Shown here: positions 1 to 44,100 of the stretch, piece after piece
Numbering within the stretch: position 1 is the first letter of the stretch
Layout: the number at the start of each line of letters is the position of its first letter
DNA from: an uncultured virus (IMG/VR IMGVR_UViG_3300025771_003046)
Lineage: Duplodnaviria > Heunggongvirae > Uroviricota > Caudoviricetes
Length of the DNA: 64,000 nt
Direction: 5' to 3' (one strand)
IMG/VR virus record: IMGVR_UViG_3300025771_003046
Program-made: the position numbers and the translations under genes
Notes under the pieces: model-generated
What the model saw: the letters and a program-made list of their open reading frames with translations, nothing else
What the model was told of the DNA's origin: nothing
Databases searched by the model: none

Positions 1-808
1 ATATAGGCGGTCCATCCTCAGCATGTGTTGCTCTTATTAACTTATCGTCTCCGTCATCCATTACAAAACTACTACCACCGAGTCTATTAAACGGTACTTC
101 AACGCCCCCGTCGGTTTCGCCATAATGAGATTTAGGACTACCCTGACGCTTATCCATCGGTCCTGGAGTAGAAAGTCCAAATACCATACTTGGTACTTCT
201 CTTACTGCGCTTGTTGTAGTTGTTCCTCTTGCTTCGTCTTCAAGTAATCCCTGAATCTGTAAAACACTTGTAAAATCTTTATTATATGGTCTAGCAAACT
301 GTGACGGATTTGTCTTTTCACCTGTTTCAAACGCTTTATTATATTCGCCTACAGGTAGTTTTTTACCTCTTAATTCTTTTGGAGTTCTTTCTGTAGTATT
401 TTTTGTGCTAGGACGTCCGTCTGGTATTGAAAAATTCATATTTTGATCAGGTATACATCCAATCCAATAACCATTACTAGAATTTCCTTCTGCAAATATA
501 ACCAATACTCTAGTTCCATAATCTGGTGGAACTGCCCACATACCATAACTTTTTTGAGAATTTTCAAAACCGTCTTTAGCCTTTAAATTATTTACTGGTG
601 TTACTCCATAAAAAGGAGATAGGTATTTTACCTTTACTAGTTGTCCACTACGTTGCGGTGTATTACTGGCTGCATTATGTCGTAAAATTTCAACCTCTAA
701 CGACCCTTGATAATGAGGATCTAAATGGTTTATAATTATGGCTTCAAACGGGCCAGGGCCTCGTAGATTTGCATTTTTTAAAAGTCTAGTTCTTTTATAA
801 CTTAACAT
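1..808 (-). CDS. Baseplate central spike/hub protein, T4 gp5/VgrG-like N-terminal OB-fold region (partial, runs off window start; not in ORF track)
   Basis: Manual translation from ATG at 808: MLSYKRTRLL...GPFEAIIINHLDPHYQGSLEVEI...YLSPFYG...SYGMWAVPPDIGTRVLVIFAEGNSSNGYWIGCIPD. The DP..G.L.V and PPD.G..V.V.F..G....YW.G pattern is typical of gp5 OB domains. Lies in the baseplate cluster. Confidence 0.75.
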   Translation of the reverse strand, partial: MLSYKRTRLLKNANLRGPGPFEAIIINHLDPHYQGSLEVEILRHNAASNTPQRSGQLVKVKYLSPFYGVTPVNNLKAKDGFENSQKSYGMWAVPPDYGTRVLVIFAEGNSSNGYWIGCIPDQNMNFSIPDGRPSTKNTTERTPKELRGKKLPVGEYNKAFETGEKTNPSQFARPYNKDFTSVLQIQGLLEDEARGTTTTSAVREVPSMVFGLSTPGPMDKRQGSPKSHYGETDGGVEVPFNRLGGSSFVMDDGDDKLIRATHAEDGPPI

Positions 809-833
809 TTTTACTACCTATATTTGTCATTAT

Positions 834-3593
834 TTAAAATGTAATTAATTCTGTTGTGCCGTCTGCTCTTAATATTTCATAATTTATATATACATTTGAT
901 TCAGTAAGATAACCTGTAAACAAATCTCCTTCATTTAAATTATTTTCTACATCAGGAAAGTCTGCTGGTACATAAAAACCAGTTATTGTACGGCCTGGAG
1001 CATTTATTTGTGCTCTGCCATCGGAGTTAGTAGAAATACTAGATACTAATTCATCATAATCTGATGAAGTGAATCGAATGTTTTCTGCTAGACGCTTTTT
1101 AGCTTCAACTTTGTTGCTGTATGTGTTTCTTTTTATCTTTTCAAAAGAATTTTCCATAGCGCCAGAACCGTTATACATAAATTCATACCCTGGTTTAGTA
1201 ACTATAACCTCTCCCGTGTTTGAATATGATATGTCAGTATCTTTAGGTGCTTCGCCTATTACTGCACCTGTTGTTGCATCGATAATTTGTCCGTCACTTT
1301 CTACTGTTTCGTAAGATGCTAAAGCTTCGAGGAATTCGTCGTCGTTTGCTGGAGGCAAATAACCCGATGACTGTTTCTTAGACACTATATCACGTTTCCA
1401 TTCTGTAATTGAAGTGGAAGATCTACTAATAGTTTTTGTTGTTGGTAAAGGTTTTTCAGACAACCCTACGGTACCGGCTGGCCTGTTATTAAATGTTTCG
1501 CTATAATAAGAAACTGGATTAGACAAGTTTGTCTCAATAGTATTCTGTCTATCGGGTGAATAAAATTCGTCTTTAAATTTATCAGATCGTTTTTTTAAAT
1601 TGTTAATATTCTCTATTTCCCTAGGATCATTTAGGTCAATTCCTTTTGTTGCAACATAAGTGTTTCTCATACTTGTAAGATCATATACACTAGATGCTTC
1701 TTTATAATAACTAGCAGTAATTTTAGCACCTATCGTAGGGTCATATACAAGGTCAGGCGTTGATACTAAATCTACGCCGATTTTGTCTGACATTTTTCTA
1801 TAATTATCTTCTCCGGCTAACCCAATAAATCCTCTAGGTTTAAATGCAGAGCCGCCAGCGTATGCATAAATTTCATCAAAGAATAAATCAGGATCTCCTT
1901 TTATAGCATCTAAAGTTGAATCAGTAATATTTTCTGCTAATGGTCCGTATTCGTATCTTATTTGTTCATTTGAGAAACCTGCAACACTTTTAGTTGCGTT
2001 AGGGTTCAATGCACTTTGCTGTTCTACCATTGCTATAATATTAGATTTTACAGTATTATCTGTAATTCCTATATTTTCTAATTCTGAATTTATACTATTT
2101 GCCGAGCTCAATGCTTGCCCTGTTGTTGTTACTGCAGGAAGTTGAGTTGTAGAGTCTATTACACCTCGGCCTCTTTCTTCAAAGCTAGGGTATCCTTTGT
2201 ATATACTAGTAAAATCGTCTTCAACTTTATCTGCTTTGCCTATCGATTCGTTCTTTGACATATGGTTTGAATCAATTGTTCCGTTGTTTACTCTAAGATC
2301 TCTAACCATTCTTCCTAATCTAAAATCGTAGCGAGTGTAATGAGGTTCCATAGTCTTATATTCGTAAACATTACTATTAGCAGATGGTAACTCGAGCGAT
2401 TTATTTGGATGAGCAGTTGTGCTGCGCCCTGCTGTCATAATATTATTATTACCAGTAGCAAAATCTGTAGTACGTTTTAGACTAGCGCCACTTTCAGGAT
2501 CAGCAACACTTGTTCCATCTGTGTTTATAACTGATTTAGTAATTTTTCCTGTGCCGCCGGTTCTAATATCTTTAAGAGCTTGTGTAAAATTAGAGCCTTT
2601 GTGTCCTACACCATTTATTCCGTCACCGTCGTAGAAACCCTGTCCTTTGGAAAGATTAGTATTCGGGATAGGAACTCCTTTATACTCTCCTATTGCTCCT
2701 TTTGATACATCAAACGGCACTGGTACACTTGCAAACTCCATAGCTAATTGTAGTTGAAAATCTTGATCTGATAATTTTCCAGCCTTCCATTTTTTTAGTT
2801 TTCGAAATCCTTCTAGTCTTATAATTATAAGAGCATCTTGCACTTCAGGAGTAAATCTAATAATATCTTTTTTATCGTTTAGTCCTGCATTCTTAATACA
2901 GTAATCTAGTGTTACTTTGATAAATTGATATCTGCCAACTGCTGACGATTTACCTGGTTTACCTTCTCTACTGACTAATTCATTTTGTTTTTCTTTCACA
3001 TCATCTAAGGTCATACTGCATAGTCGATTATCAGTTTCTCCCATCCAATGTGCATTATAACCTAGAGGACCTGATTCGTATTTTGCAATTAAATCAAGTA
3101 ACTTTTTATCTTGCTCAGTAATAGTAATGTACTCTTTGCCGTCTTCGTCTGCACTTTCAGATATGTCTGAAATTTTGTCTCTATTATTATATGTTTCCCC
3201 ACTAGTAGATTGACTAGAAATCACACTTGTGCCATTGTTTAAGTTTATCTTTTTTGCGTTAAAGTCACCTATAATAGTTGCTTCGGGATATTGGTTCTTT
3301 ATCTCTAGTGCCTTTTCTGTTGTAAGTTTAAGAGAGGCTCCTGCTTCCATAAAATCAGTAGCAGAAACAAGAGGTATAATTGTTGCTCCTTCTGCACTAG
3401 CTGCACTTTCAATTGCACTCTTATAAGAAGGTAACCCATTTTCAGGATCATCATTGGGCGGAACCACAACTATAGTTTCGTATCCTTTTAACTTTAAATC
3501 TTTAATAATTTTAGTAAGATTTTCGCCTGTGGTTGCAGCAGGTAAATTTTGATCATTATTGCCAATAGATATTATTGCAGTTTTTTTACTCAT
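834..3593 (-). CDS. Virion-associated multi-domain peptidoglycan hydrolase (lysozyme-like domain plus degenerate GH19-like domain)
   Basis: LLDLIAKYES..GYN...AVGRYQF...FTPEVQD...EFASVP resembles lambda-type/GH104 muramidases. RGFIGLAGEDNYRKMSDKIGVDLVSTPDLV resembles the GH19 RGxIQLTGxxNY...DL..PD motif. Located in the baseplate operon. Confidence 0.7.
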   Translation of the reverse strand: MSKKTAIISIGNNDQNLPAATTGENLTKIIKDLKLKGYETIVVVPPNDDPENGLPSYKSAIESAASAEGATIIPLVSATDFMEAGASLKLTTEKALEIKNQYPEATIIGDFNAKKINLNNGTSVISSQSTSGETYNNRDKISDISESADEDGKEYITITEQDKKLLDLIAKYESGPLGYNAHWMGETDNRLCSMTLDDVKEKQNELVSREGKPGKSSAVGRYQFIKVTLDYCIKNAGLNDKKDIIRFTPEVQDALIIIRLEGFRKLKKWKAGKLSDQDFQLQLAMEFASVPVPFDVSKGAIGEYKGVPIPNTNLSKGQGFYDGDGINGVGHKGSNFTQALKDIRTGGTGKITKSVINTDGTSVADPESGASLKRTTDFATGNNNIMTAGRSTTAHPNKSLELPSANSNVYEYKTMEPHYTRYDFRLGRMVRDLRVNNGTIDSNHMSKNESIGKADKVEDDFTSIYKGYPSFEERGRGVIDSTTQLPAVTTTGQALSSANSINSELENIGITDNTVKSNIIAMVEQQSALNPNATKSVAGFSNEQIRYEYGPLAENITDSTLDAIKGDPDLFFDEIYAYAGGSAFKPRGFIGLAGEDNYRKMSDKIGVDLVSTPDLVYDPTIGAKITASYYKEASSVYDLTSMRNTYVATKGIDLNDPREIENINNLKKRSDKFKDEFYSPDRQNTIETNLSNPVSYYSETFNNRPAGTVGLSEKPLPTTKTISRSSTSITEWKRDIVSKKQSSGYLPPANDDEFLEALASYETVESDGQIIDATTGAVIGEAPKDTDISYSNTGEVIVTKPGYEFMYNGSGAMENSFEKIKRNTYSNKVEAKKRLAENIRFTSSDYDELVSSISTNSDGRAQINAPGRTITGFYVPADFPDVENNLNEGDLFTGYLTESNVYINYEILRADGTTELITF

Positions 3594-8626: not shown

Positions 8627-9640
8627 TTGTTTAAAAAAGCGGCAGTATTTACTGACATACATTTTGGCCTAAAAAGTAACAGTAAAATGCATAATCAAGA
8701 CTGTGAAGATTACATCGATTGGTATATAAAAACTGCAAAAGAGCATGGTTGTGAAACTGCTCTTTTTTGTGGTGATTGGAATCACAATCGAAACAGCCTA
8801 AACTTAACTACTATGGATGCAGGCATCCGCAGTTTAGAAAAAATCGGTGCAGCGTTTGACAACTTTTACATGTTTGCTGGTAATCACGACTTGTATTACA
8901 AAGATAAACGTGATGTAAAGTCTACTGAATTTGCAAAACACATACCGGGTGTTACTGTTATTGACGAAATATGGGAGCAAGACGATGTTGCGTTAGTTCC
9001 TTGGTTAGTCGGTGACGAGTGGAAGAAAATGTCTAAGATTAAAAGCAAATATTTGTTCGGACATTTTGAACTACCCAGTTTCTATATGAATGCTATGGTG
9101 CAAATGCCCGATCACGGTGAACTAAAGTCGGAACACTTTGTAAACCAAGAATATGTGTTTTCAGGACACTTTCATAAAAGACAGAAACAAGGACATATAC
9201 ACTATATAGGAAACGCATTTCCACACAATTATGCAGATGCTAGTGACGATGCACGTGGCATGATGATTCTTGACAAAGAAAACAACGCCGAGCCTTTGTA
9301 CATCGATTGGGAAGATTGTCCAAAATATAGAAATACAACACTTAGTAAACTACTCGATCCTAAGAGCAGTCTTATTAAACCTAAAATGCATCTACGTGTT
9401 ACACTAGATATTCCTATTAGTTTTGAAGAAGCAGGGTTCTTAAAAGAAACGTATATTAAACAATATAACTGTAGAGAGATTACACTTATTAGCCAACGTC
9501 AAACTGAAGAAATTAATACAGATTTAGACATCAGCCAATTTGCAAGTGTTGATCAAATTGTGTCAAACGAAATTTCACAACTAGATACTGAAAACTATAG
9601 CAAGAAAACGCTATTAGATATTTACAACGGGTTACAATGA
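8627..9640 (+). CDS. gp47: Recombination nuclease, gp47/Mre11/SbcD-like metallophosphoesterase
   Basis: Metallophosphoesterase motifs DIHFG, GDWNHNR, GNHD, GHFE, SGHFH; TTG start with SD GGAG. Confidence 0.92.
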   Translation: MFKKAAVFTDIHFGLKSNSKMHNQDCEDYIDWYIKTAKEHGCETALFCGDWNHNRNSLNLTTMDAGIRSLEKIGAAFDNFYMFAGNHDLYYKDKRDVKSTEFAKHIPGVTVIDEIWEQDDVALVPWLVGDEWKKMSKIKSKYLFGHFELPSFYMNAMVQMPDHGELKSEHFVNQEYVFSGHFHKRQKQGHIHYIGNAFPHNYADASDDARGMMILDKENNAEPLYIDWEDCPKYRNTTLSKLLDPKSSLIKPKMHLRVTLDIPISFEEAGFLKETYIKQYNCREITLISQRQTEEINTDLDISQFASVDQIVSNEISQLDTENYSKKTLLDIYNGLQ

Positions 9641-11409
9641 TAAAGATTAAGGATTTAACAGTAAAAAACTTTATGAGTGTAGGTAATGTAAGTCAAGGTG
9701 TTGACTTTGATCAACAAAGCCTTACACTCGTGCTCGGCGAAAACTTAGATCAAGGAGGTGACGATTCGGGTTCCCGTAACGGTACAGGTAAAACAACAAT
9801 CATTAATGCATTGTCATACGCTTTATATGGCCAGGCTCTGACCAACATTAAGAGAAACAACCTTATTAATAAAACTAATTCAAAAGGTATGCTAGTTACA
9901 CTTAGTTTTGAAAAGAATAATATAAATTATAGAATTGAACGTGGACGTTCTCCTAATATTCTTAAGTTTTATGTAGATAATACCGAACAAGTTGAAGAAG
10001 ACGAGTCACAAGGCGATAGTCGCAAAACACAAGAAAGTATACAAGAACTATTGGGCATGAGTCATGATATGTTTAAACATATTTTAGCACTTAATACATA
10101 TTCTGAACCATTTTTAAGTATGCGAGCTAATGATCAACGTGCTATTATCGAACAGTTATTAGGTATTACATTACTAAGTGAAAAAGCCGATTCGTTAAAA
10201 GACGAAATTAAGCGTACTAAAGAGGCTATTACAGAAGAAACATTTAAATTAAACGCAATCGAAAGTGCTAATCAAAAAATACAAACTACAATTGACAGTT
10301 TAGGTAAAAATCAACGTGCATGGGTTGCAAAACGCAGTTCTGACGAAGAAAAACTAGTAACTGCTATCGAAGAATTAGAAAAACTAGACATTGATGCTGA
10401 ATTAGATGCACACGAAAAATTAGCAAACTGGACAGAACATAATAATTCTATTTTGGCTCTTAGAAAAGAATTAAGCACACTAGAACCTGCACTAATACGT
10501 GCTGACAAAAGTGTAACCAAAGCAGAAAAAGATATTGCAGAACTAGAAGATGCTACTTGTTATACTTGTGGACAAGAACTTCATGCAGACAAAAAAGCAG
10601 AGATTGCAGAACGCAAAGGAAAAGAACTAGAAGATGCTATTGCTTATCAAACAGAAATTACTGGAAAAGTAAAAGATGTTGCACTTGCTCTTAAAGAAAT
10701 TGGTGATATTAATGGTCGTCCTACTACATTCTACGAAACTGCAAAAGAAGCATACGAACATAGAAACAATGTTAAAAACTTGCAAAATGCATTAGTAAAC
10801 AAACAAGCAGAAGTTGATCCGTATGAAGTACAAATTAACGAACTAACAAGTACTGCACTACAAGATCTTGACTGGAGTATCATAAACAATCTTACAGAGT
10901 TTAAAGAGCATCAAGAGTTTCTATTAAAATTATTAACTAACAAAGATTCGTTTATACGTAAGAAAATTATTGATCAGAATTTAGCATATCTCAACAATAG
11001 GCTAACTTATTACTTAGATGTATTAGGATTACCACATCAAGTACAATTTTTAAACGACTTAAATGTTGAAATTACACAACTAGGACAAGATCTAGACTTT
11101 GATAATTTGTCAAGAGGTGAACGCAATAGACTTATACTCGGACTATCGTTTGCATTCCGTGATGTTTGGGAAAGTTTATACCAAGGAATTAATTTATTGT
11201 TCATTGACGAACTTATCGATTCAGGAATGGATAGTGCAGGTGTTGAAAACTCAATCAGTGTACTTAAAAAAATGACTAGAGAACGCAAGAAAAACATTTT
11301 CCTCATATCTCACAAAGATGAACTAGTTGGAAGGGTAAACAATGTATTAAAGGTTGTAAAAGAAAACGGATTTACTTCTTATGCAAACGATTTGGAGATT
11401 GTAGAATGA
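9637..11409 (+). CDS. gp46: Recombination ATPase, gp46/Rad50/SbcC-like
   Basis: Walker A GSRNGTGKTT, coiled coil with zinc hook CYTC, signature LSRGE, Walker B LLFIDE, ISH. Confidence 0.93.
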   Translation: MIKIKDLTVKNFMSVGNVSQGVDFDQQSLTLVLGENLDQGGDDSGSRNGTGKTTIINALSYALYGQALTNIKRNNLINKTNSKGMLVTLSFEKNNINYRIERGRSPNILKFYVDNTEQVEEDESQGDSRKTQESIQELLGMSHDMFKHILALNTYSEPFLSMRANDQRAIIEQLLGITLLSEKADSLKDEIKRTKEAITEETFKLNAIESANQKIQTTIDSLGKNQRAWVAKRSSDEEKLVTAIEELEKLDIDAELDAHEKLANWTEHNNSILALRKELSTLEPALIRADKSVTKAEKDIAELEDATCYTCGQELHADKKAEIAERKGKELEDAIAYQTEITGKVKDVALALKEIGDINGRPTTFYETAKEAYEHRNNVKNLQNALVNKQAEVDPYEVQINELTSTALQDLDWSIINNLTEFKEHQEFLLKLLTNKDSFIRKKIIDQNLAYLNNRLTYYLDVLGLPHQVQFLNDLNVEITQLGQDLDFDNLSRGERNRLILGLSFAFRDVWESLYQGINLLFIDELIDSGMDSAGVENSISVLKKMTRERKKNIFLISHKDELVGRVNNVLKVVKENGFTSYANDLEIVE

Positions 11410-12245
11410 TTAAAATTGGTGTAAGAGGTAGTAAATTAGCACTTGCATATGCCGATATTGTTGTTAACAGAATAAAAACAAACTTTAAACCAATTGTAGA
11501 TATACAAATTGTTCCTATTAAAACAGATGGCGACATTTATGCTAAAAAAAATATAGCAGAAATAGGCGGAAAGGGTGTTTTTGTCACAAAAATCGAACAA
11601 GAGTTGTTAGCAGGCAATATTGATTTAGCAGTTCATAGTTTTAAAGATCTTCCTAAGGACTTAGACGATAGAACAGAAATTCGTGCAGTAATGCCAAGGC
11701 ATGATCCGCGTGATGCTGTTATCGGAAATCTAGTCGACGGTTGTAAAATAGGCACAAGTAGTCCTAGACGTAAATTACAACTTGCAAAAATGTTTCCTAA
11801 CAGTGAAATACTTCCAATAAGAGGTAATATTGACACAAGAATACAAAAAGTTCGTGACAACGAGTACGATGCTACAATTTTAGCAATGGCAGGACTTGAT
11901 ACAATGAACTTAGGTCACGAAATAAACAAGATACTAGCATTAGAAGAATTAGTACCAGCTGTAGGACAAGGAGTTATTGCTGTACAGTCATTAAAAAATC
12001 AAAATACAGTATTATTAGAGAAAATTAATCACTTAGAAACATATCAGTGTGCAATGGCAGAACGTAACATGCTTCAAATGGTTGACGGTGATTGTGATAC
12101 CGCTATTGGATCAATTACAAGTATCATTGGCGATATAATTTCGCTCGAAGCATACAATTACGAAAATAATAAATCTGTAAAAATGCAATCTAAAGCAATT
12201 GATTATCTTAATCTAGGCGAATTAGCTGGTAATAGAATAAAATGA
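11406..12245 (+). CDS. hemC: Hydroxymethylbilane synthase (porphobilinogen deaminase), auxiliary metabolic gene
   Basis: RGSKLAL, GGKGVFV, DLAVHSFKDLP, GTSSPRR, RGNIDTRI, PAVGQG, and the cofactor-attachment Cys in GDCDTAIG are all present. Confidence 0.93.
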   Translation: MIKIGVRGSKLALAYADIVVNRIKTNFKPIVDIQIVPIKTDGDIYAKKNIAEIGGKGVFVTKIEQELLAGNIDLAVHSFKDLPKDLDDRTEIRAVMPRHDPRDAVIGNLVDGCKIGTSSPRRKLQLAKMFPNSEILPIRGNIDTRIQKVRDNEYDATILAMAGLDTMNLGHEINKILALEELVPAVGQGVIAVQSLKNQNTVLLEKINHLETYQCAMAERNMLQMVDGDCDTAIGSITSIIGDIISLEAYNYENNKSVKMQSKAIDYLNLGELAGNRIK

Positions 12246-12463
12246 ACAACGAAGACGACTTACATACACAATTAGTTCAAGCATACTTAGAATATTTTAA
12301 GGCAAATGAATGGTGGGAAAGGAAAAACTCAGTTAGAGCATATTCCGCAGTTCAAAAGGCAACAAGAGAAATACGTAGAATAGCAAGAGAACGAAATACT
12401 GAAATAAAAGAGATACAAAAAGACTATAAAATCAAGTTTAAAGGCAAACAATACAAGGATTGA
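12242..12463 (+). CDS. Small hypothetical helical protein
   Basis: 73-aa ORF overlapping the hemC stop (ATGA), indicating translational coupling. Confidence 0.7.
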   Translation: MNNEDDLHTQLVQAYLEYFKANEWWERKNSVRAYSAVQKATREIRRIARERNTEIKEIQKDYKIKFKGKQYKD

Positions 12464-12473
12464 TAAACATTGT

Positions 12474-12908
12474 ATGAATTGGACATATAATGGCGACGAA
12501 GTTACAGAAATACCAGATGAGTATGAAGGTTTTGTTTACATTATTACTAATTTAACAGATGATCGCAAATACATAGGCAAAAAACTAGCAAAATTTAAAA
12601 CTACTAAGCCACCCTTAAAAGGCAAAAAAAATAAAAGACGCGGATACAAAGAATCAGACTGGAAAGACTATTGGGGATCTTCAGATAAACTATTAGCAGA
12701 CGTAGAAAAATTAGGCAAAGACAAGTTCACAAGAGAAATACTATATTTTTGTAAAAGCAGAGGCGAAATGTCTTACTTAGAGGCAAGAGAACAGTTTAGT
12801 AGGCGAGTATTAGAGACGGACGAGTATTATAACGGTATAATAAACGTGCGTGTAGGCGGATCAAACATACTTAGAGAAAATTTAAAGGCACATCAGGACA
12901 CTATTTAA
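12474..12908 (+). CDS. Small GIY-YIG family nuclease (Seg-like)
   Basis: GFVYIITNL...KYIGKK...YWGSS...REIL...LEAREQ...YYN matches GIY-YIG motifs; no additional DNA-binding domain. Confidence 0.8.
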   Translation: MNWTYNGDEVTEIPDEYEGFVYIITNLTDDRKYIGKKLAKFKTTKPPLKGKKNKRRGYKESDWKDYWGSSDKLLADVEKLGKDKFTREILYFCKSRGEMSYLEAREQFSRRVLETDEYYNGIINVRVGGSNILRENLKAHQDTI

Positions 12909-12914
12909 AAGCCA

Positions 12915-13160
12915 AAATCCAGCCGAGGTAATGCTCGTCGCCGGTGGAGTGGTAAAGTCCAACAGGCTGTATGCTACGAAAACCCCTTAGCACTAGGAAC
13001 GAAGCGGGGGATAGCGCATTTTGCGTGATGTCGACGTAGGTTGGGAAAGGTCAGAGCCCAGTAGCAAAGTCAAATACCTACTTCCAATGTCTCGACTATG
13101 ATACTCACATGAAGATATCTTCGAGGACGACGGGACCCTGCAAGGTTCCGTCTGACTAAT
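12915..13160 (+). ncRNA. Candidate structured non-coding RNA with pseudoknot (family not recognised; strand assumed)
   Basis: ORF-free, GC-enriched. Pairings: CAGCC 12920/GGCTG 12965; CCCC 12983/GGGG 13007; GCGCA 13014/TGCGT 13022; GTCGA 13030/TCGAC 13092; GTAGGT 13036/ACCTAC 13076; TGGG 13042/CCCA 13057; crossing TGCTAC 12972/GTAGCA 13061; GACGGGACC 13129/GGTTCCGTC 13144. Confidence 0.6.
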
Positions 13161-13177
13161 TAATCTACATGAAACTA

Positions 13178-13256
13178 TTACTTCACATTCGTTCAGTTAA
13201 AAAGAAGAAATATAGTTTGAGCGATAGCGAAAACTTATATCTACGAAGTAGATATA
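13178..13256. other. Cluster of ssDNA-type hairpins (two inverted tandem-GA hairpins and a GAA-triloop hairpin); possible origin/ssDNA signal
   Basis: Minus strand 13197-13180: ACT-GA-AC-GAAT-GT-GA-AGT. Plus strand 13214-13235: AGTTT-GA-GC-GATA-GC-GA-AAACT. Plus strand 13236-13256: TATATCTAC-GAA-GTAGATATA. Confidence 0.45.
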
Positions 13257-13257
13257 C

Positions 13258-13263
13258 TAAATA
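13258..13263 (+). promoter_or_regulatory. Late promoter (TAAATA)
   Basis: CTAAATA five nt before ATG 13269, with no SD. Confidence 0.55.
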
Positions 13264-13268
13264 TATAC

Positions 13269-13829
13269 ATGAAGCTTAATGATATATTAACAGAATCACA
13301 ATTAGATGAATTTATTCCTTTAACTAAACAAGGAAGAATGATTCGACGTGCTGAAAAAGCAGGAGCAGCTGATCTACAAGCTACTGCAAATAAATTATTA
13401 CAGCAATATGCAGCACATCTTGGAACACAAGAAAAAAAAGTTAAGACATCTGACTATAATGATTTGTTTGATTTCTTAAAAAGAAAAAATGTTGATACAT
13501 CTGATATAGATACAACACCTCCGATTAATGCAAAACGGTTAAAAACTATATTTTTAGCAAAATCTAAACAAGCTATGACTCCTACTCAGTCATCTGGACA
13601 AAAAACGCCTAGCAAAGAACCTAAACAACCTGCAACAAAAGTAAGTAGTGCATATATGTCAACAAAAAATGCTGCGCTAAAGTTAAATTCAAAAGAAAAA
13701 CGTAGATTAATAGCACAATTACAAAAATCTGTTGATAATACTGCAAGACCTAAAAAACAACCTACTATAGTTGATAAGAACTTTGATAAAAGTCAACGTT
13801 TAAGCCAATATGGTAAAGTTGGCAAGTGA
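13269..13829 (+). CDS. Hypothetical basic protein, possibly an internal virion protein
   Basis: 186-aa ORF after a late promoter. N-terminus MKLNDILTESQLDE carries (I/L)xE motifs like T4 gp21-processed proteins (inference). Confidence 0.65.
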   Translation: MKLNDILTESQLDEFIPLTKQGRMIRRAEKAGAADLQATANKLLQQYAAHLGTQEKKVKTSDYNDLFDFLKRKNVDTSDIDTTPPINAKRLKTIFLAKSKQAMTPTQSSGQKTPSKEPKQPATKVSSAYMSTKNAALKLNSKEKRRLIAQLQKSVDNTARPKKQPTIVDKNFDKSQRLSQYGKVGK

Positions 13830-35189: not shown

Positions 35190-38100
35190 ATGTCAACAAT
35201 AAGACTCAAGAGAAGTGCTGAGCCGGGTAAAATCCCATCGATTGAACAACTAGAACTAGGCGAAGTAGCTGTCAATACACATGACGGCAAAATGTTTATG
35301 AAAAGAGACCAAAGTGGTAACTTTGCTATAAAAGAATTTGGCGCAAGAGACGCCGCAAGTAATGTGTTTTACGTAACACAAGACGGATCTAATACTAACG
35401 ATGGTAAAACAATAGGAGACGCATTTGCGACTATTGATTACGCTTTAAAAAATATTCCAGAGGGATCAACACTATATGTAAAGGCTGGACAGCACACAGT
35501 TGACAATCCAGTTAAACTTCCGGCATTTGTTGCTATTGTTGGTGACTCACTTAGAACTACATTTGTACAACCAAAAAATCCAGCAGAAGATATATTTTGG
35601 GTTAACAACGGTTGTTTCCTTAAAGATATGCGCTTTAATAACTACATTGCACCTAGTGCAGCAGTTTCGTTCCCCCCAGATGGAAGCGCCGGATCAATTA
35701 TGTGTTCACCGTATGTACAAAACTGTACATCATATACTACAACTGGTACAGGTATGCGAGTTGACGGATCAGTTGTTACTGGCCTACGCTCAATGGTTGT
35801 TGACGCCTATACACAGTATAACCAGGGTGGTATCGGTGTGCATCACCTTAACAGAGGTAACACACAGCTTGTTTCGATCTTTACAATCTCATGTGATATT
35901 TCAATTATGTGTGAAAGCGGAGGCTTTTGCTCACTAACTAACTCAAACACATCATTTGGTAACTACGGACTTATTTCCGATGGTTATAGTGAAGCACTAT
36001 TTGGTGCGTCTGCTGGTGCTAACATTAGTAGAAACTCGATGTTTATGAATGACCTAGTAACGGTTCCATTTATTCAAAACGCATCTGTGTTTAGTGGCAC
36101 TGGTGAAGTTTATACAATTTCAGAAGCTACTCCGATTAAAGTCGGTCAAGGTGTTGTAACTGGACCAACACTAACCCAAGAAGACAGTGATTTATTATTT
36201 GCTAGAGAAAGAATTTTAGCCAATAGAGAAGTAATTCAAAGATCAACAGTTAACTTTGTGAAAGATAATTATCAAACAGGCGGCGAATTTGACGAAGCTA
36301 AATGTGCTAGAGATAGTCAACTTATACTTGATGGTGTAGGTTTTGATGTTGCACTAGATACAAACTTTAACAGTGTTTATAATGGTATTTCGTATCAAAG
36401 AGCAAATGCTAAATTTGTTATTAATACCCAGTTTGAAGCAACAAAAGGCGCAATTGATTTCTTAAAAGCCGAAACAGCAGCTTTACTAAGTGGTACTTCA
36501 TTAACTAGAGCTAATGCAGGATTTGACGATGTAAAAGGAATTCTTGACGGTGGTGTAATAAGCACTACAGTTCCAGGAGATGGTGTAGCCGACGCACTTA
36601 CATTTAGTTCAACACTAGGTGTAACAGATGGTATAAATGCTAGAACAATTTTACAAGCGAATATTGCATTCTTACAAGCAGAAGTACTTGCATTTAACGA
36701 TGATTATAATGCAACGGCGATTGCTGCTGACGCTACCGGTGCAACTACAGTAGTTTATGATAGAGAAAAGTGTCAAAGAGATGTACAATACATTGTAGAC
36801 GCTCTTTCATATGACGCACAGTATGGTGGCAATAGCGCAACAGTATCGGCTATGAATTCTTATATTGTTGGTACAGGAATTGATCAACTTCCAGCAGATC
36901 AAAGAGATCTTACTGCTGATTCATATGCTCACTTAGCAGATATGGTTGCAGCAATTTTAACTGATCCGTCAGTTGATCCTGGTACAAAATTAAGTGCTGG
37001 TAGTCCAGACAATTCCGCAGCGGTTACTGCTGCATCTCTTTCAGGTACAATCGAAGCACTTGTAGATACATTTGCAGGAGTATTAATTGAAGATGCAACG
37101 CCGGCTGGCACACCAACTGCAACTATTCCAGCAGTAGTAACTCCAAATGTTACAACATTGGGTGTAGCAGCAGAGTTTACAACATCGCAAACTGCAATCA
37201 CAAATGCGTCTGCACAAATTGTAGATGATGTAATTGCATTTGTTAATCAAGAATATAATTTCTCTTTCAACCAAGAAAAATGTGCAAGAGATTTACAAGA
37301 AATAATTGATGCAGCTAAAATAGATGCTGTTACAAACTCTTTGTACAATCAAACTGTAGTTGGTTTAACATACACAATGGAAAGTAGTGCTTATCTACTT
37401 AACTTACAAAAAACACAAACCGCAGCAGGTATTCAATATGCTAGAGATTTAGTTACAGCAGACGGTAATTTTACAGATACTACAGACAGAACTGAATTTA
37501 TTAATGCTGTAAACGAAGTAATTAACATATTAAATACAGGAACTCCAACATCTGACTTAACAACTGGTACTTTTGCAACTAATTTTCCAACAAGCACTGA
37601 TTATTCTAATGCAGCAAGTCGTGCAGCCGCAGCTGAAGCAATAATAAACGGTATTCCTTCTTTACAGACTGATGCTCTAACTTTCCTACAGAATGGGAAC
37701 GCAGGTGGTGGTTTTGATTTTTCAGCCCAAGCCGGAGAATTTTCAAGTTTAGCTAGTGGAGGTACTGTTTCATCAGATGAACTAAAATCAGTATACCAAG
37801 ATATGGTAAGAGATGGAACATTTACCAAGTGTCAAAGAGACGTGGCTTACTTAGCACAAGCAGTAGCATTTGATACAATGTATGGTGGTAATAGTGCAAC
37901 TTTGCGTGTAGCAAAATCATACTTTGTAGGTGCAATTGCAGGTGACGACGATACTGAAATATCACAACTAGGTGGCGGACAAAAGAATGCAACACTTGCA
38001 CTATATGCCTTCTTGGCAGTACAAATTGCGGCAGCTGTTAGCGCTGCGTCAGCAAATGCAGGGTTAGGTTCGGGCTCTGGTGCATCAAAAACAATTAATC

Positions 38101-41100
38101 AATTAGTTGCAGTTGTTACTGATCATATTGACGCAGACGGTGTAGCATTAGCTTCTTTAGATACAGTTATACTTGCCAGCCCTGCCGACGACGATGAAAT
38201 TCTAACAGTATCTGAAATTGAAGCAGTTGACGACGAAGCAATTAATGATACAATATTCTATCTACAAGATGCATTTGTACTACTAGACTTTAACGAGTCT
38301 AAGTGCTACAGAGATACAGGTATTATTATTGATGCTGTTGTAGATGACATGGTACTAGGAACAAATTATAAATCAGTAGTTTCTGGTAGAACATATTCAA
38401 TGGATTCAGCGGCACTTGTTATTGCGGATCAAAAAGTAGAAACATTAGCAGCAATAAATCATGCAAGAGACGAAGCACTAGGATTTATCAATGACTTTTC
38501 GTCTAATGCTTCAAAAGTTACAGCATATAATAGAGTACAGTCAAACTTTAATTTGATCTCTGATTTAATTAGTAAGTCAGAGTATGCATTTAAATCATAT
38601 ACAGTAGTAGACGCAGATTACAATCCGACGGCTGCTGGTAACTATGGTAGTACTTCTACTCCTGCAAACAGAGTTATGACATTAACAATTGGCCAGCATA
38701 GTTTTACAACATCAGATACAGTTGTAATTGCTCCTAATAGTTTAACATTCCAGTGTTATTCAAGTGGTGATAATGAGTTCCAAACTATTACACATCCAAG
38801 AGAAGTAGCAGGTCAAAGTGCAGATCCAAATGCAGTATCTCCAGGTTCAGATCCAGCATTTGAAACTCCAGTAGATATTGTTGCAGTTACAGACACTACA
38901 ATTACAGTAGACGTTGGTGTAAATACTGGTGCTGGTAATGTTGAGCATACATTTATTAGTGCTACAGAAAATGGTATAACATATGGTAATTCGTTTATTA
39001 ATTATCCAATGCCAACAAATGTTCTACCAGAAATAAACAGAGCGTTTACAAACATCAAGAAAAACAAAGCATATTTGATTGAAGAAGCAGTTGCTCATAT
39101 CGATCAAAACTATCCGTTACTAGGATACGACAGAGGAACATGCGAAAGAGATATCGGACTTATAATTGATGCTGTGTCATACGATGCAATGTTTGACTCA
39201 AACTTCCGTTCAATTACAGCTGGTAAAGCATATCTAAGAGGTGTTATACAAGTTATAACAGGTGATGTACTTGTAGATGAAACAACTACTACAACAGGTA
39301 TTACTGGTACACTATTAACAATGGATCCAACTAAAACAGTAGTAAATCCAGGTGACGAGTTAACAGTTCTACCAACTGAGCAAAAAATTGCAACACTAGA
39401 ATCATTTAGAAAACTAAGAGATTTACTTGTTCAGATTACATTTGATAATGATACAAAGGCACGTGTAGTAGACCGTATGGATCTTATTATAGATATTGTA
39501 CAAGATGGCGAATCAGTAATTCCAGCAGTAAGTATTCCTACAGCAAACATTACAACTAACGACACAGTAAACTATACAGAAAACTTTAATGCAACTGGTG
39601 TTCCAGAAACAATTACAAACATTGAAAATTCGAGAGAATTTATTATTGCAGAAACAAAGGCATTTATTGATACTAACTTCCCAGCATTATTATCAACTGA
39701 TGCTAACGGTAATATTGTCCGAGACTATAATGCAAACGACAAGTGTGAAAGAGACGTAGGTCTTATATTAGATGCACTAAAATATGACTTAACATATGGC
39801 GGTAATATGGAAACCTTAATAGCTGGTAAAGCATACTTCTCAGATGTTGTTGCATCAGCAGATGGACCAGTTGATTTATTAGGTTCACGTTCAGTAAACA
39901 TAGATATTGTTAATGCTGGTGGTATTCAACTGATTAATCCAATTACAATTACAACATCTATTAAACATGGCTTAGTTGATGGATCACAAGTAACACTACT
40001 AGATATTAGTGGCGTTGTTGAACTAACAGGTAAAACTTTCTTTGTTAAGAAAGTAAGCGACACAGTGTTTGAATTATATGATGATGCAGCCCTAACAATC
40101 CCATTAGACGGTACTACTGGATTTACAGCATATGCTAACTTAGGTGGTACTGTAAGAGTTAATGCAGCAGAAGTAATTGCTACTGTAGAGTCTTATAACT
40201 TCCTAGCAGATCTAATATTGACACTAGGTAATGGTGTTGCTCCAGTTAATCCACAGCAAACAATTGTTACAGCAGGAGCACTGACAACAACTAACAGTCC
40301 AAATGGTACTAGAGCAAAATCACTTGTTGACGATATTATTACTATAATTGAAAACGATAGCTCTGTTCCAGTTGAGTTGCTTGCAGATCCAAGTTGGGTC
40401 ACTGGCTACAATGCAACCGAAACATATCCGTTAGAATTAAATGGCACCGATCTTTATTCAGACTTCTTGATTATGCAAGGTGAAAAAGATGATATACAAT
40501 CAGAAATTACAAGATTTATTGAAGCAAACTTTGCTTATGATAAAAAAGTATGCCGTAGAGATATGGGATACATTATTGATGCTACATTATTTGATGGACT
40601 ATACAACGGTAACAGTGCAAGTTATGATGCAGCAAGACAATACTATACACAAGGTAAACTAGTTATTCCAGCAATCCAGCGTAAAGCAACAGGTGACGCA
40701 ATGGAACTTCTTAGAAAGCGTATAGGTGATGTACTACGTTCAAACAGAGTTGTTGCAGAACAACTTCCAACATCGCCGACATTAGTGCTACAAGATACAA
40801 CTACTCCAGCAGCCACAATTACTGAAATTCTAAGAATTCAGAAAAACTTTGATGTACTTGAAAGTCAAATACGTAGAGATTATTTCATCAATGACTTTAT
40901 TGATGTAATTGATCCTGACTTTAATCTTCAAACAGAAACAGCAAACAAAATTAGAAATAAGATACTTGCTGAAAAAGAAAACCTACAGGTTAAAACAATT
41001 AAATTTATCGATACAACATTTAGAGAATTCCGTTTTGATAGAGAAGTTTGCTCAAGAGATGTAGGACTTATTTTAGATGCAGTTGCAATGGATGTTGCAC

Positions 41101-44100
41101 TAGGTACTAACTATAATTCAATTATTGCAGGTCTATCATATCAAAGAGGTAGTTTGTCAATTGGTACTGTTAAAGATGAGCAGAAGCCACAAACAATAGC
41201 AGCTATTGAATTCCTAAAAACAGAAACACTAGCAATTTCAGGACTGTCAGCAACAGGTATTGCAAGAGCAACAGCAGCATTTGATGAAATTATAGACATC
41301 TTTACAAATGGTGAAACAAGTACTAGAACAGCAGCAGATGCAATTACATATCCAGTTCCGACAGGTGTTGATACTAACAAACAAAACTCACATGACTTGT
41401 TACGTGCTAACAGAGACTTTATATCTGAAGAGATTATTGAATGGATTGAAGATAACTTTACAAACTTTGAATATGATGAGTTTAAGTGTGAAAGAGACAC
41501 AAGAATTATACTAGATGCAATTGCACTAGACGCAGCTCTAAATACAAACTATAACACAATTACAGTAGCACTTGCATACAAGCGTGTAAATGCACAACTA
41601 GTAATTACAGATCAGTTGATACAAACTGTAGCAGCTATGGATTATCTACGCAAATTAGTAGACGAAAACAAAGATCTAAGTGTTATTGGTCGTGCAAGAA
41701 TGACACGTTTAATCGATGATATTATAGAAATTGTACAATCAGATACAACTGACTTAGATGTATTTGACAGTACAAACTTTGATAGTACACTACTTAACGC
41801 ATACGAAAACATTGAAATGAATGCACCTAAAAATGCAACACAAGATGAAATCGATGCCAAAGAGCAGTTAAAACTTAACAAAGAATTCTTAGCAAGTGAA
41901 GTATTAGCGTTTATCAACTTAAACAATCCGACACTAGACTATGTTGAAGCTAAGTGTAAAAGAGACGTTAAATTCTTACTTGATGCAGCAGCATTTGACT
42001 TACTATACGGTGGTAACTCAGCAACTGTACAAGCGGCTAATAGCTACTTTGTAGGAACAGCTAACCAGTTAGGTGATGACGAAGTACAAGCAACAATCGA
42101 TGCTTATAACCATTTAAAAACTGTTATTGAACCAGTTGTACTTGCAACTAGTGAAGATAACAATCCAGTATATGTACCAACAGCTGGTAATAGTATGCGT
42201 CAAATTATCGAAAGTGATCCAGGAACAGCTACTGAAGTTGCAGCTATTCAAGCATCGCTTGATATTGTTATTGCTAGAATACAAGGCACACCGACACCAA
42301 CACTAGTTAAGCCAAGTTTAACAGGTGCTGATGCTAACTTAATTAAAGACTTTAATGAAATATCAGAGACTGCTTCAGTAGAAGCACAGAAAGTTGTAGA
42401 TTATGTAAATGATCAATTTGCAAACTTTACATATGATATTGACAAGTGTGCAAGAGATGTTAAACTAGTTGTACTAGGCGCAGCAATTGACTTAGAGTAT
42501 TCAACTAACTATAACAGTGTAACTAATGGTCTTTCATACCTAAGAGGAAATGCTAAGAAAGTTTCAAACGCATTCCAAAAAGCAATTACACTAGCCGCAC
42601 TTGATAAACTAAAAACACTAGCAGCTACAACTATCGGAACAGGTACAGGTTATGCAGCAGCAGTAACAGCAGTTAATGCAAGTATTGATACAGTAAAAAC
42701 AATATTTGATGAAGGTTTAGTTGGCATAACACCAACAAACGCTGTATATGATCCAACAACAGGTGTTATGGATCTTACAATTGGCGAGCATACATTCATA
42801 CAAGGTGATACAATTACACTAGAGCCAGGCAGCTTGAAATTTACTTGTGCAAGTGACGGAAACAACGTTGTACAAGCATACCCAAGAACAAGTGATCCGG
42901 CATTTAATTATACACTAAAAATTATTGACACTGGTAAACTAACAATAAGTGTAAACGTTGGAGTATCATCAGAAACATCAGCGCACACATTTATTACAGC
43001 AGATGAAAAAGCAATTAAAACTGGTGCTCTTCCAAATGCAGTTCCGGCGCTAACATTTGCAGGTATAGATGCAACAAATGACTCGGCTTATGCAGCAAAA
43101 GCAATACTTGCTAACAAAGCGTTTATTGCAGCAGAGATGTCAGCATATGTTGTAAATGATCCTAACTTTATACTAGTTGGTAACTACGATGAAACAAAAT
43201 GTCGTAGAGATTCAAATAATATATTAGATGCAGTTGCATTAGATTTGCGTACAGGTTCAAACTATAACTCACTATATGCAGGTATTGCATACACAAGAGC
43301 AAATAGTGATTATGTAATTAGTGCCCAAAAATCAGCAACAATAGCAGCTATTGAATTCTTAAGAGATACTGTAAAAGCACTATCAAATGTTGATGCAGCA
43401 GCAGACACAAGAATTGATTCACTATTTGCAATTATTATCGCAGCAATTAACAGTGGCGCTACAAGCACGTTGCTTCCAGGAGGCGCTACAGGCGTTCCAC
43501 TATTAAGTCTTCCAACTCCGAATACTCCAATTGCAGGCGGCGCAGATGCAGCAGCACGTTTAACATATAACAGAGATGCGTTAGCAGAAGAAGTACTAGA
43601 ACACATTAACCAAAATGCAAATGCTATATACCTATCTATGGATCAAGCTAAATGTTCAAGAGATGTAAAATACATTGTTGAAGGACTAGCACATGATGCA
43701 GTATATGGTGGTAACATTGGTGCTAAACTAAATGGCGAAGCATACTTTGTAGGTAACGATACTGAACAGTTAGGCATTGGTCAAAGATCTGCAACAGTAG
43801 CAGCATATCAACATCTTGCACAAGTAATAGAGCAGTTAGTCGGCGCAGGTGTAGCTGATGCTGGATTCACTAGCGTAATATTAGTAGCTAACCCAACTCA
43901 AGCGTGGAGTGATAATTCAGTACCTAATGCAGCAACAATAGCAACTTACTTAGCAGACAGTTCAACTGGGTTAATTGAAACTTGCATAGTTGCACCTATT
44001 AATGCAAACAAATTGGCTAACTTCTACACACCAACAGCGGCATCATATGTTCCAACTACAGGTGTACTAACACTTACTGTAACTGGTAATCCGTTCTCAA

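Follow-up and report, generated by a model that had tools for sequence, protein, structure and literature searches.

The DNA analysed here, referred to as the window, is a 64,000-nucleotide stretch of an uncultured virus of the Caudoviricetes (IMG/VR record IMGVR_UViG_3300025771_003046). In this window, a + strand gene string, gp47-gp46-(hemC)-small ORF-GIY-YIG, converges on a baseplate-hub operon, and a non-coding, GC-enriched region (12909-13256) occupies its 3′ end. Hundreds of contigs from uncultured aquatic phages keep this region beside the same gene. The features of the locus are the following.

12242..12463, + strand: small ORF of 73 aa, from a fast-evolving basic family, directly 5′ of the GIY-YIG gene in most relatives
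12474..12908, + strand: GIY-YIG nuclease gene, 144 aa, single domain, SegE-type catalytic domain only
12922..12941, + strand: 5′ hairpin GCCGAG...CUCG..GC, 94-97% identical to class-2 RNAs (sequence read directly)
12945..12961, + strand: hairpin UGGA/UCCA with loop GUGGUAAAG; GAUUG/CAAUC or GAUAG/CUGUC in relatives (by eye)
12965..12977, + strand: 5′ strand of helix HL, GGCU + UGCUAC (swap test, 69 unique combinations)
12983..13010, + strand: hairpin 1, CCCC..GC / GC..GGGG, with invariant 12-nt loop ACUAGGAACGAA (pair counts)
13014..13026, + strand: hairpin 2, GCGCA/UGCGU, where a variable-length hairpin inserts in relatives
13027..13060, + strand: ultra-conserved core GAUGUCGAC-GUAGGU-UGGG(AAAGGUCAGAG)CCCA, holding the 5′ strand of helix K and hairpin 3
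13061..13071, + strand: 3′ strand of HL, GUAGCA + AGUC (swap test)
13076..13081, + strand: 3′ strand of helix K, ACCUAC, pairing with 13036-13041 and crossing HL to form a pseudoknot; G-U in 6 of 92 sequences, otherwise invariant
13090..13126, + strand: hairpin X, UCUCGA/UCGAGG, with extension GAUA/UAUC and a tip made of ACUC + R1
13107..13113, + strand: R1, ACAUGAA, the 7-mer after ACUC at the tip of hairpin X
13129..13152, + strand: 3′ hairpin GACGGGACC / GGUUCCGUC with a GCAA-containing loop (pair counts)
13153..13166, + strand: linker UGAC...AAUCU, kept in all three RNA classes
13167..13173, + strand: R2, ACAUGAA, identical to R1, 60 nt downstream of it and after AUCU
13214..13235, + strand: hairpin AGUUU/AAACU with loop GAGCGAUAGCGA (the GAGCGNNAGCGA hairpin), single copy in the 109.9-kb record
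13236..13256, + strand: hairpin UAUAUCUAC-GAA-GUAGAUAUA (sequence read directly)

The first-pass annotation described the 144-aa product as a GIY-YIG protein devoid of a separate DNA-binding domain, and the Pfam scan agrees, with SegE_GIY-YIG (PF19835) over residues 3-123 (E 3.9e-35, 121.2 bits for a cutoff of 25 bits) and no second domain. The protein was assigned to phrog_447 and has 578 relatives in viral contigs, while phmmer against PDB chains (E<=1) returned no related solved structure. It might be a counterpart of T4 EndoII (denA), an idea that relies solely on the position of denA after nrdB and on synteny with Melnitz. The 73-aa ORF had no Pfam or PHROG match, but a member of its family was found by tblastn in 62 of 80 loci (L001-L080); its stop codon lies 10 nt from the GIY-YIG start codon.

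The absence of ORFs and the GC enrichment noted from the letters alone both hold: there is no + strand ORF of at least 40 aa in 12909-13268, and GC content is 0.45-0.53 in the region versus 0.28-0.36 in the flanks. Because segment lengths among relatives spread over the three mod-3 residues (32/47/35) and the median internal ORF is 19 aa, the region is considered non-coding. G-U changes are one-sided across the alignment, which places the RNA on the + strand. A structured RNA of about 250 nt ending at 13160 had been proposed; the structured RNA stands, but its end does not, as the element continues to about 13256. Positions ~12915-13173 of the + strand encode a large pseudoknotted non-coding RNA, followed by accessory hairpins up to 13256. 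The evidence for this RNA is comparative, because its single-sequence fold energy is no better than that of shuffled sequences (z +0.22 on the + strand, +0.97 on the - strand). The RNA occurs once in the 109.9-kb record.

The TGCTAC/GTAGCA part of the long-range helix HL (12972-77 / 13061-66), already seen by the first-pass annotation, is proven by covariation in a swap test, in which each strand pairs with its own partner at a mean of -11.25 kcal/mol versus -6.65 with swapped partners (69 unique strand pairs, at least seven sequence families). Covariation, which had been suggested as a check, also supports hairpin 1, where changes on both sides were counted in three of the four outer pairs (42, 19 and 23 cells), 99.4% of the cells are paired and none of 500 shuffles was as good. 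The proposed pseudoknotted RNA is conserved and tied to the locus, with helix K crossing HL. Helix K itself (GTAGGT/ACCTAC, 13036-41 / 13076-81) and the TGGG/CCCA hairpin (13042-45 / 13057-60) are present as first drawn, but they are nearly invariant in 92 sequences, so that covariation neither proves nor refutes them; the exact 32-nt core was found in more than 120 viral loci. The helix at the K position of class-2 RNAs does covary by eye (AGAG/CUCU, GAAG/CUUC, UGAG/CUCA and GGAG/CUCC).

The GTCGA/TCGAC stem of the first drawing is in competition with an overlapping one, helix X, TCTCGA/TCGAGG (13090-95 / 13121-26). Compensatory support for helix X is modest and its swap test is weak (-6.66 with its own partner versus -6.10 with swapped ones). 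Hairpin 1, hairpin 2, the 3′ hairpin and others are additional to the stems first listed. In the 3′ hairpin, the 3′ strand is invariant and the 5′ strand varies through G-U pairs. Of 158 unique loci, 100 have the GAGCGNNAGCGA (GAGCG) hairpin on the + strand 37-124 nt past R2, with no case on the - strand, and the other 58 lack it.

This RNA belongs to a superfamily with members on several hundred contigs of uncultured aquatic myophages, in which it represents the marine branch, class 1, which is uncatalogued. Class 2 has a different core. Class 3 carries Polynucleobacter-1 (RF01718) as an extra domain at the 5′ end. Common to all classes is a 3′ module, composed of a hairpin tip with ACUC + R1, a GC-rich GNRA-type hairpin, the linker UGAC..AUCU and R2. 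The region is mosaic, with the first 45 nt common to class 1 and class 2 and the hairpins past R2 common across classes. The first-pass annotation had seen by eye no fit to the group I/II intron, RNase P, tmRNA or SRP consensus. Over the whole window, nothing in Rfam reached gathering score and E<=10 gave a single junk match, and neither ARAGORN nor Rfam found a tRNA or tmRNA in the window. For RF01718 in particular, this RNA has no match at gathering score (37 bits), at E<=10 or by nhmmer, the 5′ domain being absent, whereas four relatives (L220, L265, L272 and L274) score 96-116 bits against the model.

Polynucleobacter-1 is an orphan motif published by Weinberg et al. (2010, PMC2864571). 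The 141-nt motif of the freshwater and estuarine relatives lies directly 3′ of the homologous GIY-YIG gene, with the same core and ACUC-R1 ... AUCU-R2 module after it, within the shared gene order gp46 - GIY-YIG - RNA - convergent hub operon; a GIY-YIG homolog precedes 92 of 98 confirmed viral RF01718 members. The published motif differs in being just the 5′ part of a longer RNA. A 16-year-old orphan Rfam motif thereby gains a genomic home, after a small nuclease gene of large aquatic myophages, and turns out to be a single domain within a far larger, modular family of RNAs that counts hundreds of members. A search with a loose Polynucleobacter-1 pattern in genome contigs gave 120 chance matches, of which nhmmer found none to be real, and blastn against 50,697 records of cultured phages gave no match for class 1, 2 or 3. 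The literature on Polynucleobacter-1 yielded Weinberg 2010 alone, and no description of this RNA was found in work on pelagimyophage non-coding RNA or, at the level of abstracts, in work on GIY-YIG genes with structured RNA in phages.

An unusual constraint on the RNA is that the 7-mer changes many times, with about 20 different R 7-mers over the three classes, yet R1 and R2 stay identical to each other. In class 1, R1 equals R2 in 89 of 90 parsed unique loci, for a fraction of 0.545 expected from variant frequencies. In class 2, identity is found in 48 of 57 unique loci (expected 0.23), the other nine differing at position 7 only, and in class 3, where the repeats follow ACTC and ATCT, in 50 of 54 (expected 0.15), the remaining four being unparsed. 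In a mutual-information analysis, four of the five variable R1 columns have the matching R2 column as their top partner; for the fifth, which varies in a single sequence, the matching column comes second. No column complementary to R1 was found. Mapped onto a tree of the remainder of the RNA, R1 shows 17 changes, R2 17 and the pair 18, and in seven independent pairs R2 follows in the same direction in 6.3 on average and in the opposite direction in none (median p 0.03), although these counts may be inflated by recombination in the mosaic region.

The 7-mer follows the pattern R-N-A-U-R-A-D, and 18 of 19 variants have UGA or UAA as their positions 4-6. R is thus not free to vary, and something must also read the sequence itself. 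A pyrimidine|purine boundary precedes every R. The flanks, CUC for R1 and UCU for R2, do not match, which limits pairing to 7 bp, rarely 8. Several other roles for R were discarded on the basis of the sequences: pairing with a tRNA anticodon loop (the class-2 variants do not fit), a start codon (AUA, GUG and AGG variants), the end of an ORF (a stop codon precedes R by two codons), a sigma-70 -35/-10 pair (spacing of ~10 nt) and translational bypass (no reading frame through). A target-site duplication or recombinase core was also set aside, as the 3′ strand of helix X lies between the repeats and the interval is just 49-68 bp.

The identity of R1 and R2 hints at an RNA acting on its own DNA locus. 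Identical sequences on the same strand cannot pair with each other and no complement lies nearby, the reverse complement of R being almost never present within +/-1.5 kb of the loci; the nearest molecule able to pair with both is the template (-) DNA strand. Of the two options left by the first-pass annotation, a nuclease-RNA particle and a primer or regulatory RNA, the second is the direction favoured. We tentatively prefer a cis-acting RNA in which loop R1 would pair with the template strand at R2, seeding an R-loop in the manner of ColE1 RNA II. The folded RNA would present R1, which may pair with the template at R2 during or just after the crossing of R2 by RNA polymerase, anchoring the transcript to its own locus. 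By analogy with RNA II, the R-loop could then provide a primer or origin, or else halt or terminate transcription where the two operons converge, and the GAGCGNNAGCGA hairpin would be exposed on the displaced + strand.

ColE1 RNA II remains persistently hybridised to its template and acts as the replication primer (PMC5043065). Like RNA II, the phage RNA would be a long folded transcript acting in cis on its own template, its upstream segment equals a downstream transcript sequence, so that pairing with the template strand would be possible, and hairpins lie downstream on the displaced strand. The likeness is one of possible working rather than membership, as there is no sequence or structural similarity; the origin, the RNase H site and the antisense RNA I are features of ColE1. 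Masukata and Tomizawa reportedly described in 1990 the pairing of an upstream G-rich loop of RNA II with template DNA near the origin. Several observations weigh against the cis-acting reading, including the shortness of the pairing, the constrained R pattern and the absence of the GAGCGNNAGCGA hairpin from more than a third of the loci. In addition, R1 is often partly paired in minimum free energy folds, being fully unpaired in 23 of 114 (RNAfold, a count which depends on the fold model), a consensus scan for a sigma-70-like promoter or an intrinsic terminator gave nothing above shuffles, and the cumulative GC skew of the window is lowest at ~7-8 kb, where gene direction switches divergently, with no feature at the RNA.

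A broader form of the cis-acting reading, to which we give a slightly lower probability, is that the RNA addresses its own gene: the R1 loop would read the template ~60 nt downstream, at R2, and program an event there, which would be a new type of RNA-DNA recognition. This event could be replication priming by an R-loop, cleavage of the exposed strand at a nick made by the small nuclease next door or a hairpin-independent termination. The 7-nt address would be freely rewritable provided that both copies change together, with the orphan Polynucleobacter-1 motif as an optional part of the self-addressing device. If the loop reads template DNA, this would be a natural, short and re-programmable RNA-DNA addressing in cis, bearing on the start of replication or the end of transcription in large phages and on minimal RNA-programmed tools. 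The R1 = R2 rule is itself a cleanly testable constraint. The rule, the link to Polynucleobacter-1 and the lack of dependence on the GIY-YIG gene are the new elements here.

It is unlikely, but would be compatible with the same identity, that the RNA acts in trans through twin 7-nt seeds, with R1 in a loop and R2 in a single-stranded linker pairing with the same complement on a different molecule (an mRNA of the phage or host, the loop of a tRNA or some other RNA), while the body recruits or positions a protein or is catalytic. A shared partner would select for the identity of two accessible segments, the fixed A3, U4 and A6 suggest a partly conserved partner, and the invariant loops, GNRA-type hairpins and pseudoknot are like those of large functional RNAs. 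However, no complementary sequence was found within +/-1.2-1.5 kb of each locus, the 64-kb window has no further instance of the pattern YYY-ACATGAA-R or of its complement, and no partner was found that changes as often as R. Furthermore, R2 is buried in a perfect local hairpin in two loci (L012 and L013).

The same low probability is given to the view that the nuclease gene, GIY-YIG or PD-(D/E)XK, is a selfish free-standing homing gene, sitting beside a conserved RNA gene and cutting the rivals' copy. T4 SegB provides a precedent for a homing nuclease in a tRNA gene cluster. The SegE-type protein, the two unrelated small nuclease genes sharing the slot before the RNA, the mosaicism at both ends of the region and the excess of contig breaks downstream of the GIY-YIG gene (32 of 80 loci, versus 7 of 80 upstream) would all fit. 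On the other hand, the nuclease is near-universal where a homing gene is expected to be sporadic, a full-length GIY-YIG gene being found in 74 of 80 long-flank class-1 loci (two are partial and four have too little upstream DNA), in 63 of 69 class-2 loci and in 92 of 98 class-3 loci. Unlike the T4 Seg homing endonucleases, the protein has no C-terminal DNA-binding domain, and no empty site was found. Homing would in any case explain linkage and mosaicism but not the role of the RNA itself.

The relation between the RNA and the nuclease also bears on the idea, put forward in the first-pass annotation, of a GIY-YIG/guide-RNA particle. By blastn, the RNA was matched in 73 of 80 GIY-YIG loci, eight of which match over only the first ~45 nt and carry the class-2 core, and the seven loci lacking a match are all cut within ~220 nt of the gene. 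Linkage is observed in hundreds of contigs, but dependence on the nuclease is not: the GIY-YIG homologs of Melnitz, of the cyanophages ACG-2014f and S-SRM01 and of phiM12 are directly followed by other genes and no such RNA, and in six of 69 class-2 loci a PD-(D/E)XK gene (PDDEXK_15) replaces GIY-YIG before the same RNA. Because synteny extends over the whole gp46 ... baseplate-hub neighbourhood, the two may be adjacent simply through inheritance of the gene order. We infer that the GIY-YIG gene is a neighbour of the RNA rather than an obligate partner.

A particle composed of the RNA and the adjacent nuclease, with R1 as the guide towards DNA that carries R2, is not supported and is judged quite improbable. 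Bridge-RNA and omega-RNA guides were recognised through the co-variation of a loop with a nearby DNA site, which R1 recalls, and a nuclease gene is immediately 5′ of the RNA in every locus with enough flank. As in the omega-RNA of HEARO/OMEGA systems and the IS110 bridge RNA, a structured RNA lies by a nuclease gene. However, the neighbours are GIY-YIG or PDDEXK_15 rather than IscB or TnpB, and the guide-like variable segment that had been anticipated was not found, the co-varying element being 7 nt, which is short for a guide, instead of 16-20 nt. The ORF list, Pfam and PHROG reveal no recombinase gene at the locus, including the DEDD/Tnp type of IS110, and one loop is present where the bridge RNA has two, complementary to target and donor DNA. 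R1 is also identical, and not complementary, to the site on its own strand, and the sole matching site is the element's own locus. The wide occurrence of the GIY-YIG family without the RNA, the unrelated fold in six loci and the lack of an Rfam match add to these objections.

A comparison was also made with the Ssn single-stranded DNA nucleases, which belong to CDD cd10448 and target multi-copy repeats (Chenal et al. 2025, PMC11893778). As is the case here, Ssn proteins are minimal GIY-YIG nucleases that lack a DNA-binding domain, and conserved hairpin-forming sequence flanks their genes. The present protein differs in being SegE-type (PF19835), with the phiM12 homolog annotated as cd10444, and the GAGCGNNAGCGA hairpin is found once in the 109.9-kb record rather than in multiple copies.

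The position of the RNA at the end of a + strand operon facing the hub operon, kept in all classes, could also indicate a 3′ UTR, terminator or insulator at the convergent junction, which would stabilise the upstream mRNA or stop read-through, with R1 and R2 as sites for a processing enzyme. The covarying hairpins after R2 and the constant pyrimidine|purine boundary are consistent with such a role. Nevertheless, we find it very unlikely, since 260-450 nt with a pseudoknot and invariant loops of 11-34 nt far exceed the needs of termination, the scan found no terminator-like site and the site of a host enzyme should be conserved rather than co-varying.

Finally, a remnant or variant of a self-splicing intron or ribozyme carrying the nuclease ORF, suggested by the frequency of GIY-YIG genes in group I introns and by a pseudoknotted core with GNRA loops, is scarcely credible, given that no Rfam intron matches even at E<=10, that the 10-nt gap after the 73-aa ORF leaves no room for a 5′ half, that no host gene is split, that the helix order is unlike P3-P7-P8 and that RNA-library contigs are collinear through R1 and R2. 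These contigs, from four runs of four studies, cover the gene and the RNA without joints, in libraries which may contain DNA, may miss rare forms and are silent on ends, strand and level. Among the pieces, X1 corresponds to 12584-13056 and X3 to 13031-13347 with 0 differences.

The region 3′ of the GIY-YIG nuclease gene encodes a real RNA feature, which belongs to a large family. In an AT-rich window (GC about 0.28-0.40), the 360 bases 3′ of the gene reach a GC content of up to 0.53, and no ORF on their + strand attains 40 aa. A search turned up 578 relatives of the nuclease, from which 80 loci were retained for comparison. The 266-nt RNA region has a blastn match in 73 of these 80 loci, while all 7 misses are contigs cut at most about 220 nt from the GIY-YIG gene; in 8 of the 73, only the first ~45 nt match and the core is that of another class (class 2). 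The 32-nt core at 13029-13060 has exact copies in more than 120 viral loci, a lower bound. In the 92-sequence alignment used for covariation, 3 of the 4 outer pairs of hairpin 1 are changed on both sides (42, 19 and 23 cells). Pairing holds in 99.4% of cells, and 0 of 500 shuffles attained the covariation score. Variation in the 3′ hairpin is solely one-sided and G-U-compatible, which places the RNA on the + strand. Segment lengths modulo 3 (32/47/35) reveal no three-base periodicity, and the internal ORF has a median of 19 aa. The single-sequence fold energy is not better than that of shuffles (z +0.22 and +0.97). Comparison among relatives provides strong evidence for the RNA: the ORF-free, GC-enriched, structured region described in the first-pass annotation is conserved and covarying. 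Neither the Rfam scan proposed there nor ARAGORN matched the RNA region to any family.

A 3′ module is common to all classes: ACUC and a 7-mer (R1) at a hairpin tip, a GC-rich hairpin with a GNRA-type loop, a UGAC..AUCU linker and a second 7-mer (R2). In the window, these are:

13107-13113, + strand: R1, 7-mer after ACUC
13167-13173, + strand: R2, the same 7-mer after AUCU

R1 and R2 are identical in 89 of the 90 unique loci parsed in class 1, the marine branch including the window (0.545 expected from variant frequencies), and in 48 of 57 in class 2 (0.23 expected), where the 9 non-identical loci differ at position 7 only and 1 further locus was unparsed. In class 3, which carries a Polynucleobacter-1 5′ domain, identity is found in 50/54 unique loci (4 unparsed; 0.15 expected), a count biased towards identity because the best pair among candidates was used. 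Six extra class-1 loci were missed by the regular expression; by eye, 5 are identical and 1 has one mismatch. For 4 of the 5 variable R1 columns, the top mutual-information partner is the matching R2 column, which ranks second for the fifth (one sequence varies); the same analysis yielded no column complementary to R1. A tree from the remainder of the RNA requires at least 17 changes in R1, 17 in R2 and 18 in the pair, counts perhaps inflated by recombination in this mosaic region. Among 7 phylogenetically independent pairs, R2 goes with R1 in a mean of 6.3 and opposite in none (median p 0.03). In the flanks searched at each locus, the 7-mer (R) hardly ever has its reverse complement. To judge from the literature searches, identity between the loop and the downstream site is a new rule, one that can be tested directly.

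Identical segments of the same strand cannot pair together, hence selection for their identity implies a shared complementary partner, and the sole candidates in evidence are an antisense transcript and, at R2, the template strand of the DNA. Judging from the sequences, we tentatively favor a cis-acting RNA, in which loop R1 would pair with the template strand where R2 lies, anchoring an R-loop at its own locus; priming, or stalling at the convergent junction, could be the outcome. The proposed pairing shares its logic with ColE1 RNA II, a loop of which is reported to contact template DNA. For RNA II, a review bears out the persistent-hybrid primer, though not this loop contact (PMC5043065). 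Against the R-loop model, the pairing potential is just 7 bp and R, with its pattern R-N-A-U-R-A-D always preceded by pyrimidines, is itself restricted in sequence; GC skew lends the model no support. Alternatively, the two identical 7-mers could be the twin seeds of a trans-acting RNA, which appears unlikely. About 50 nt 3′ of R2 lies a hairpin with the loop GAGCGNNAGCGA, single copy in the 109.9-kb viral record (rated 30% complete) on which the window sits, and carried by 100 of 158 unique loci, always on the + strand and never on the - strand.

The helices first proposed fared unequally. TGCTAC/GTAGCA, the long-range helix HL (12972-77/13061-66), is borne out by at least 7 unrelated sequence versions among relatives, its strands pairing at a mean of -11.25 kcal/mol with their own partner versus -6.65 when swapped (69 unique combinations). 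GTAGGT/ACCTAC (helix K, 13036-41/13076-81) and TGGG/CCCA are both present but nearly invariant in the 92 sequences. Because the class-2 helix at the K position covaries (AGAG/CUCU, GAAG/CUUC, UGAG/CUCA and GGAG/CUCC, by eye), the HL x K pseudoknot is likely. GTCGA/TCGAC overlaps another helix, X (13090-95/13121-26; TCTCGA/TCGAGG), with modest compensatory support: TCTTGG is paired with (TC/TT)AAGA in 11 of 12 cases, against which stand a C-A mismatch in 21 TCTCGG loci and a weak swap test.

Class 2, found via the loci matching the first ~45 nt only, has a larger, different core and a different GC hairpin; its 20-nt hairpin is present in 100 viral loci. RF01718 (Polynucleobacter-1 RNA) was first seen in L220 by an Rfam E-value scan of nine relatives, and passes the gathering score in L220, L265, L272 and L274 (96-116 bits), on the RNA's own strand, directly 3′ of the GIY-YIG gene and 5′ of the shared core. 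Its pattern occurs in at least 120 viral loci; among the matches listed, nhmmer confirmed 98, of which 92 have a GIY-YIG homolog just 5′ (about 50-76% identity). Large viral contigs (up to 354 kb) hold RF01718 in abundance, and in them it makes up the 5′ domain of a larger RNA after a GIY-YIG gene. Polynucleobacter-1 was published in 2010 as an orphan motif whose 16 members came from Burkholderiales and from fresh water or estuary (PMC2864571). The window RNA does not match RF01718; its branch is uncatalogued, and a sister branch holds this known orphan motif.

The genes around the RNA are:

8627-11409: gp47/gp46-like genes
11406-12245, + strand: phage porphobilinogen deaminase, hemC (PF01379, E 6e-66), start overlapping the gp46 stop codon
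12242-12463, + strand: small ORF, 73 aa
12474-12908, + strand: GIY-YIG nuclease gene, 144 aa (PF19835, phrog_447)
13269-13829, + strand: gene 3′ of the RNA, 186-aa ORF
beyond the 186-aa ORF, - strand: 70-aa ORF, then baseplate-hub gene (PF12322)

All classes share one arrangement: gp46, (small ORF), nuclease and RNA, met by the convergent 70-aa ORF and hub gene. The nuclease is one SegE-type GIY-YIG domain alone (PF19835, E 3.9e-35, residues 3-123; phrog_447), with Methylophilales phage Melnitz as nearest cultured relative (72.6% identity). Among 80 long-flank class-1 loci, the GIY-YIG gene is full in 74 and partial in 2, the other 4 having too short an upstream flank to tell. It is present in 63 of 69 class-2 loci; the remaining 6 (L210, L216, L231, L232, L241 and L256) carry a PDDEXK_15 gene (PF24608, ‘RusA-like’ phrog_244) in the nuclease slot, in the order gp46 - PDDEXK - RNA - convergent hub operon, both the small ORF and the GIY-YIG gene being replaced. 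GIY-YIG homologs in Melnitz, cyanophages ACG-2014f and S-SRM01, and phiM12 have other genes directly 3′. Because of these swaps and RNA-less homologs, the RNA is independent of the GIY-YIG nuclease, and the nuclease family of the RNA.

Their adjacency is explained by conserved gene order or by selfish nuclease genes lodged beside a conserved RNA gene. A homing-nuclease neighbourhood, compatible with other readings, is itself rather improbable, a guide-RNA particle more doubtful still, and a 3′ UTR or insulator scarcely probable. Contigs end within 1.4 kb of the GIY-YIG gene downstream in 32 of 80 loci and upstream in 7 of 80 (L001-L080), and modules are shuffled among classes, both of which fit a recombination-prone spot; several 50-130 kb contigs end inside or just past the RNA. 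These ends reflect either assembly breaking where the sequence is hypervariable or, possibly, a physical end. Window positions 1-1238 are N or outside the contig, and several related long contigs likewise break ~12 kb 5′ of the RNA.

Part of the stretch is contained in 17 RNA-library runs (20 runs listed, 16 studies), and contigs from 4 runs span the gene-RNA junction, collinear across R1 and R2. These contigs show no splicing, are uninformative on ends, strand and abundance, and could reflect DNA carry-over; an intron or ribozyme remnant is highly improbable.

The hemC gene was found in 14 of 80 related loci (tblastn) and a ferrochelatase gene lies directly 3′ of the GIY-YIG homolog of ACG-2014f; hence heme-pathway genes recur near this nuclease gene. 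The 73-aa ORF of the window and its counterparts 5′ of the GIY-YIG gene in relatives form a family of small basic ORFs, many relatives having the motif R.HR..RKWLREIR.LAK.R..EI; GGTAAGTA often directly precedes the GIY-YIG start codon, and (A/T)AGGC(A/T) words are repeated 5′ of both gene and RNA. An extra ORF of 87-104 aa lies between gene and RNA core in L018, L027, L093, L097, L100, L113, L123, L124, L141 and L153, the gap being about 480-570 nt versus 124-357 nt without it. The gene 3′ of the RNA, in the window and its counterparts, has no match in Pfam or PHROG; it is fast-evolving, with a length of about 160-400 aa across relatives, and in L045 and L050 is preceded by TATAAATA, which we take to be a match to the T4 late promoter. 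The nearest cultured relatives of the baseplate-hub gene are in jumbo phages, e.g., Atu_ph07 and PA5oct. Further downstream, one ORF of 4958 aa occupies 35190-50066 (+ strand).
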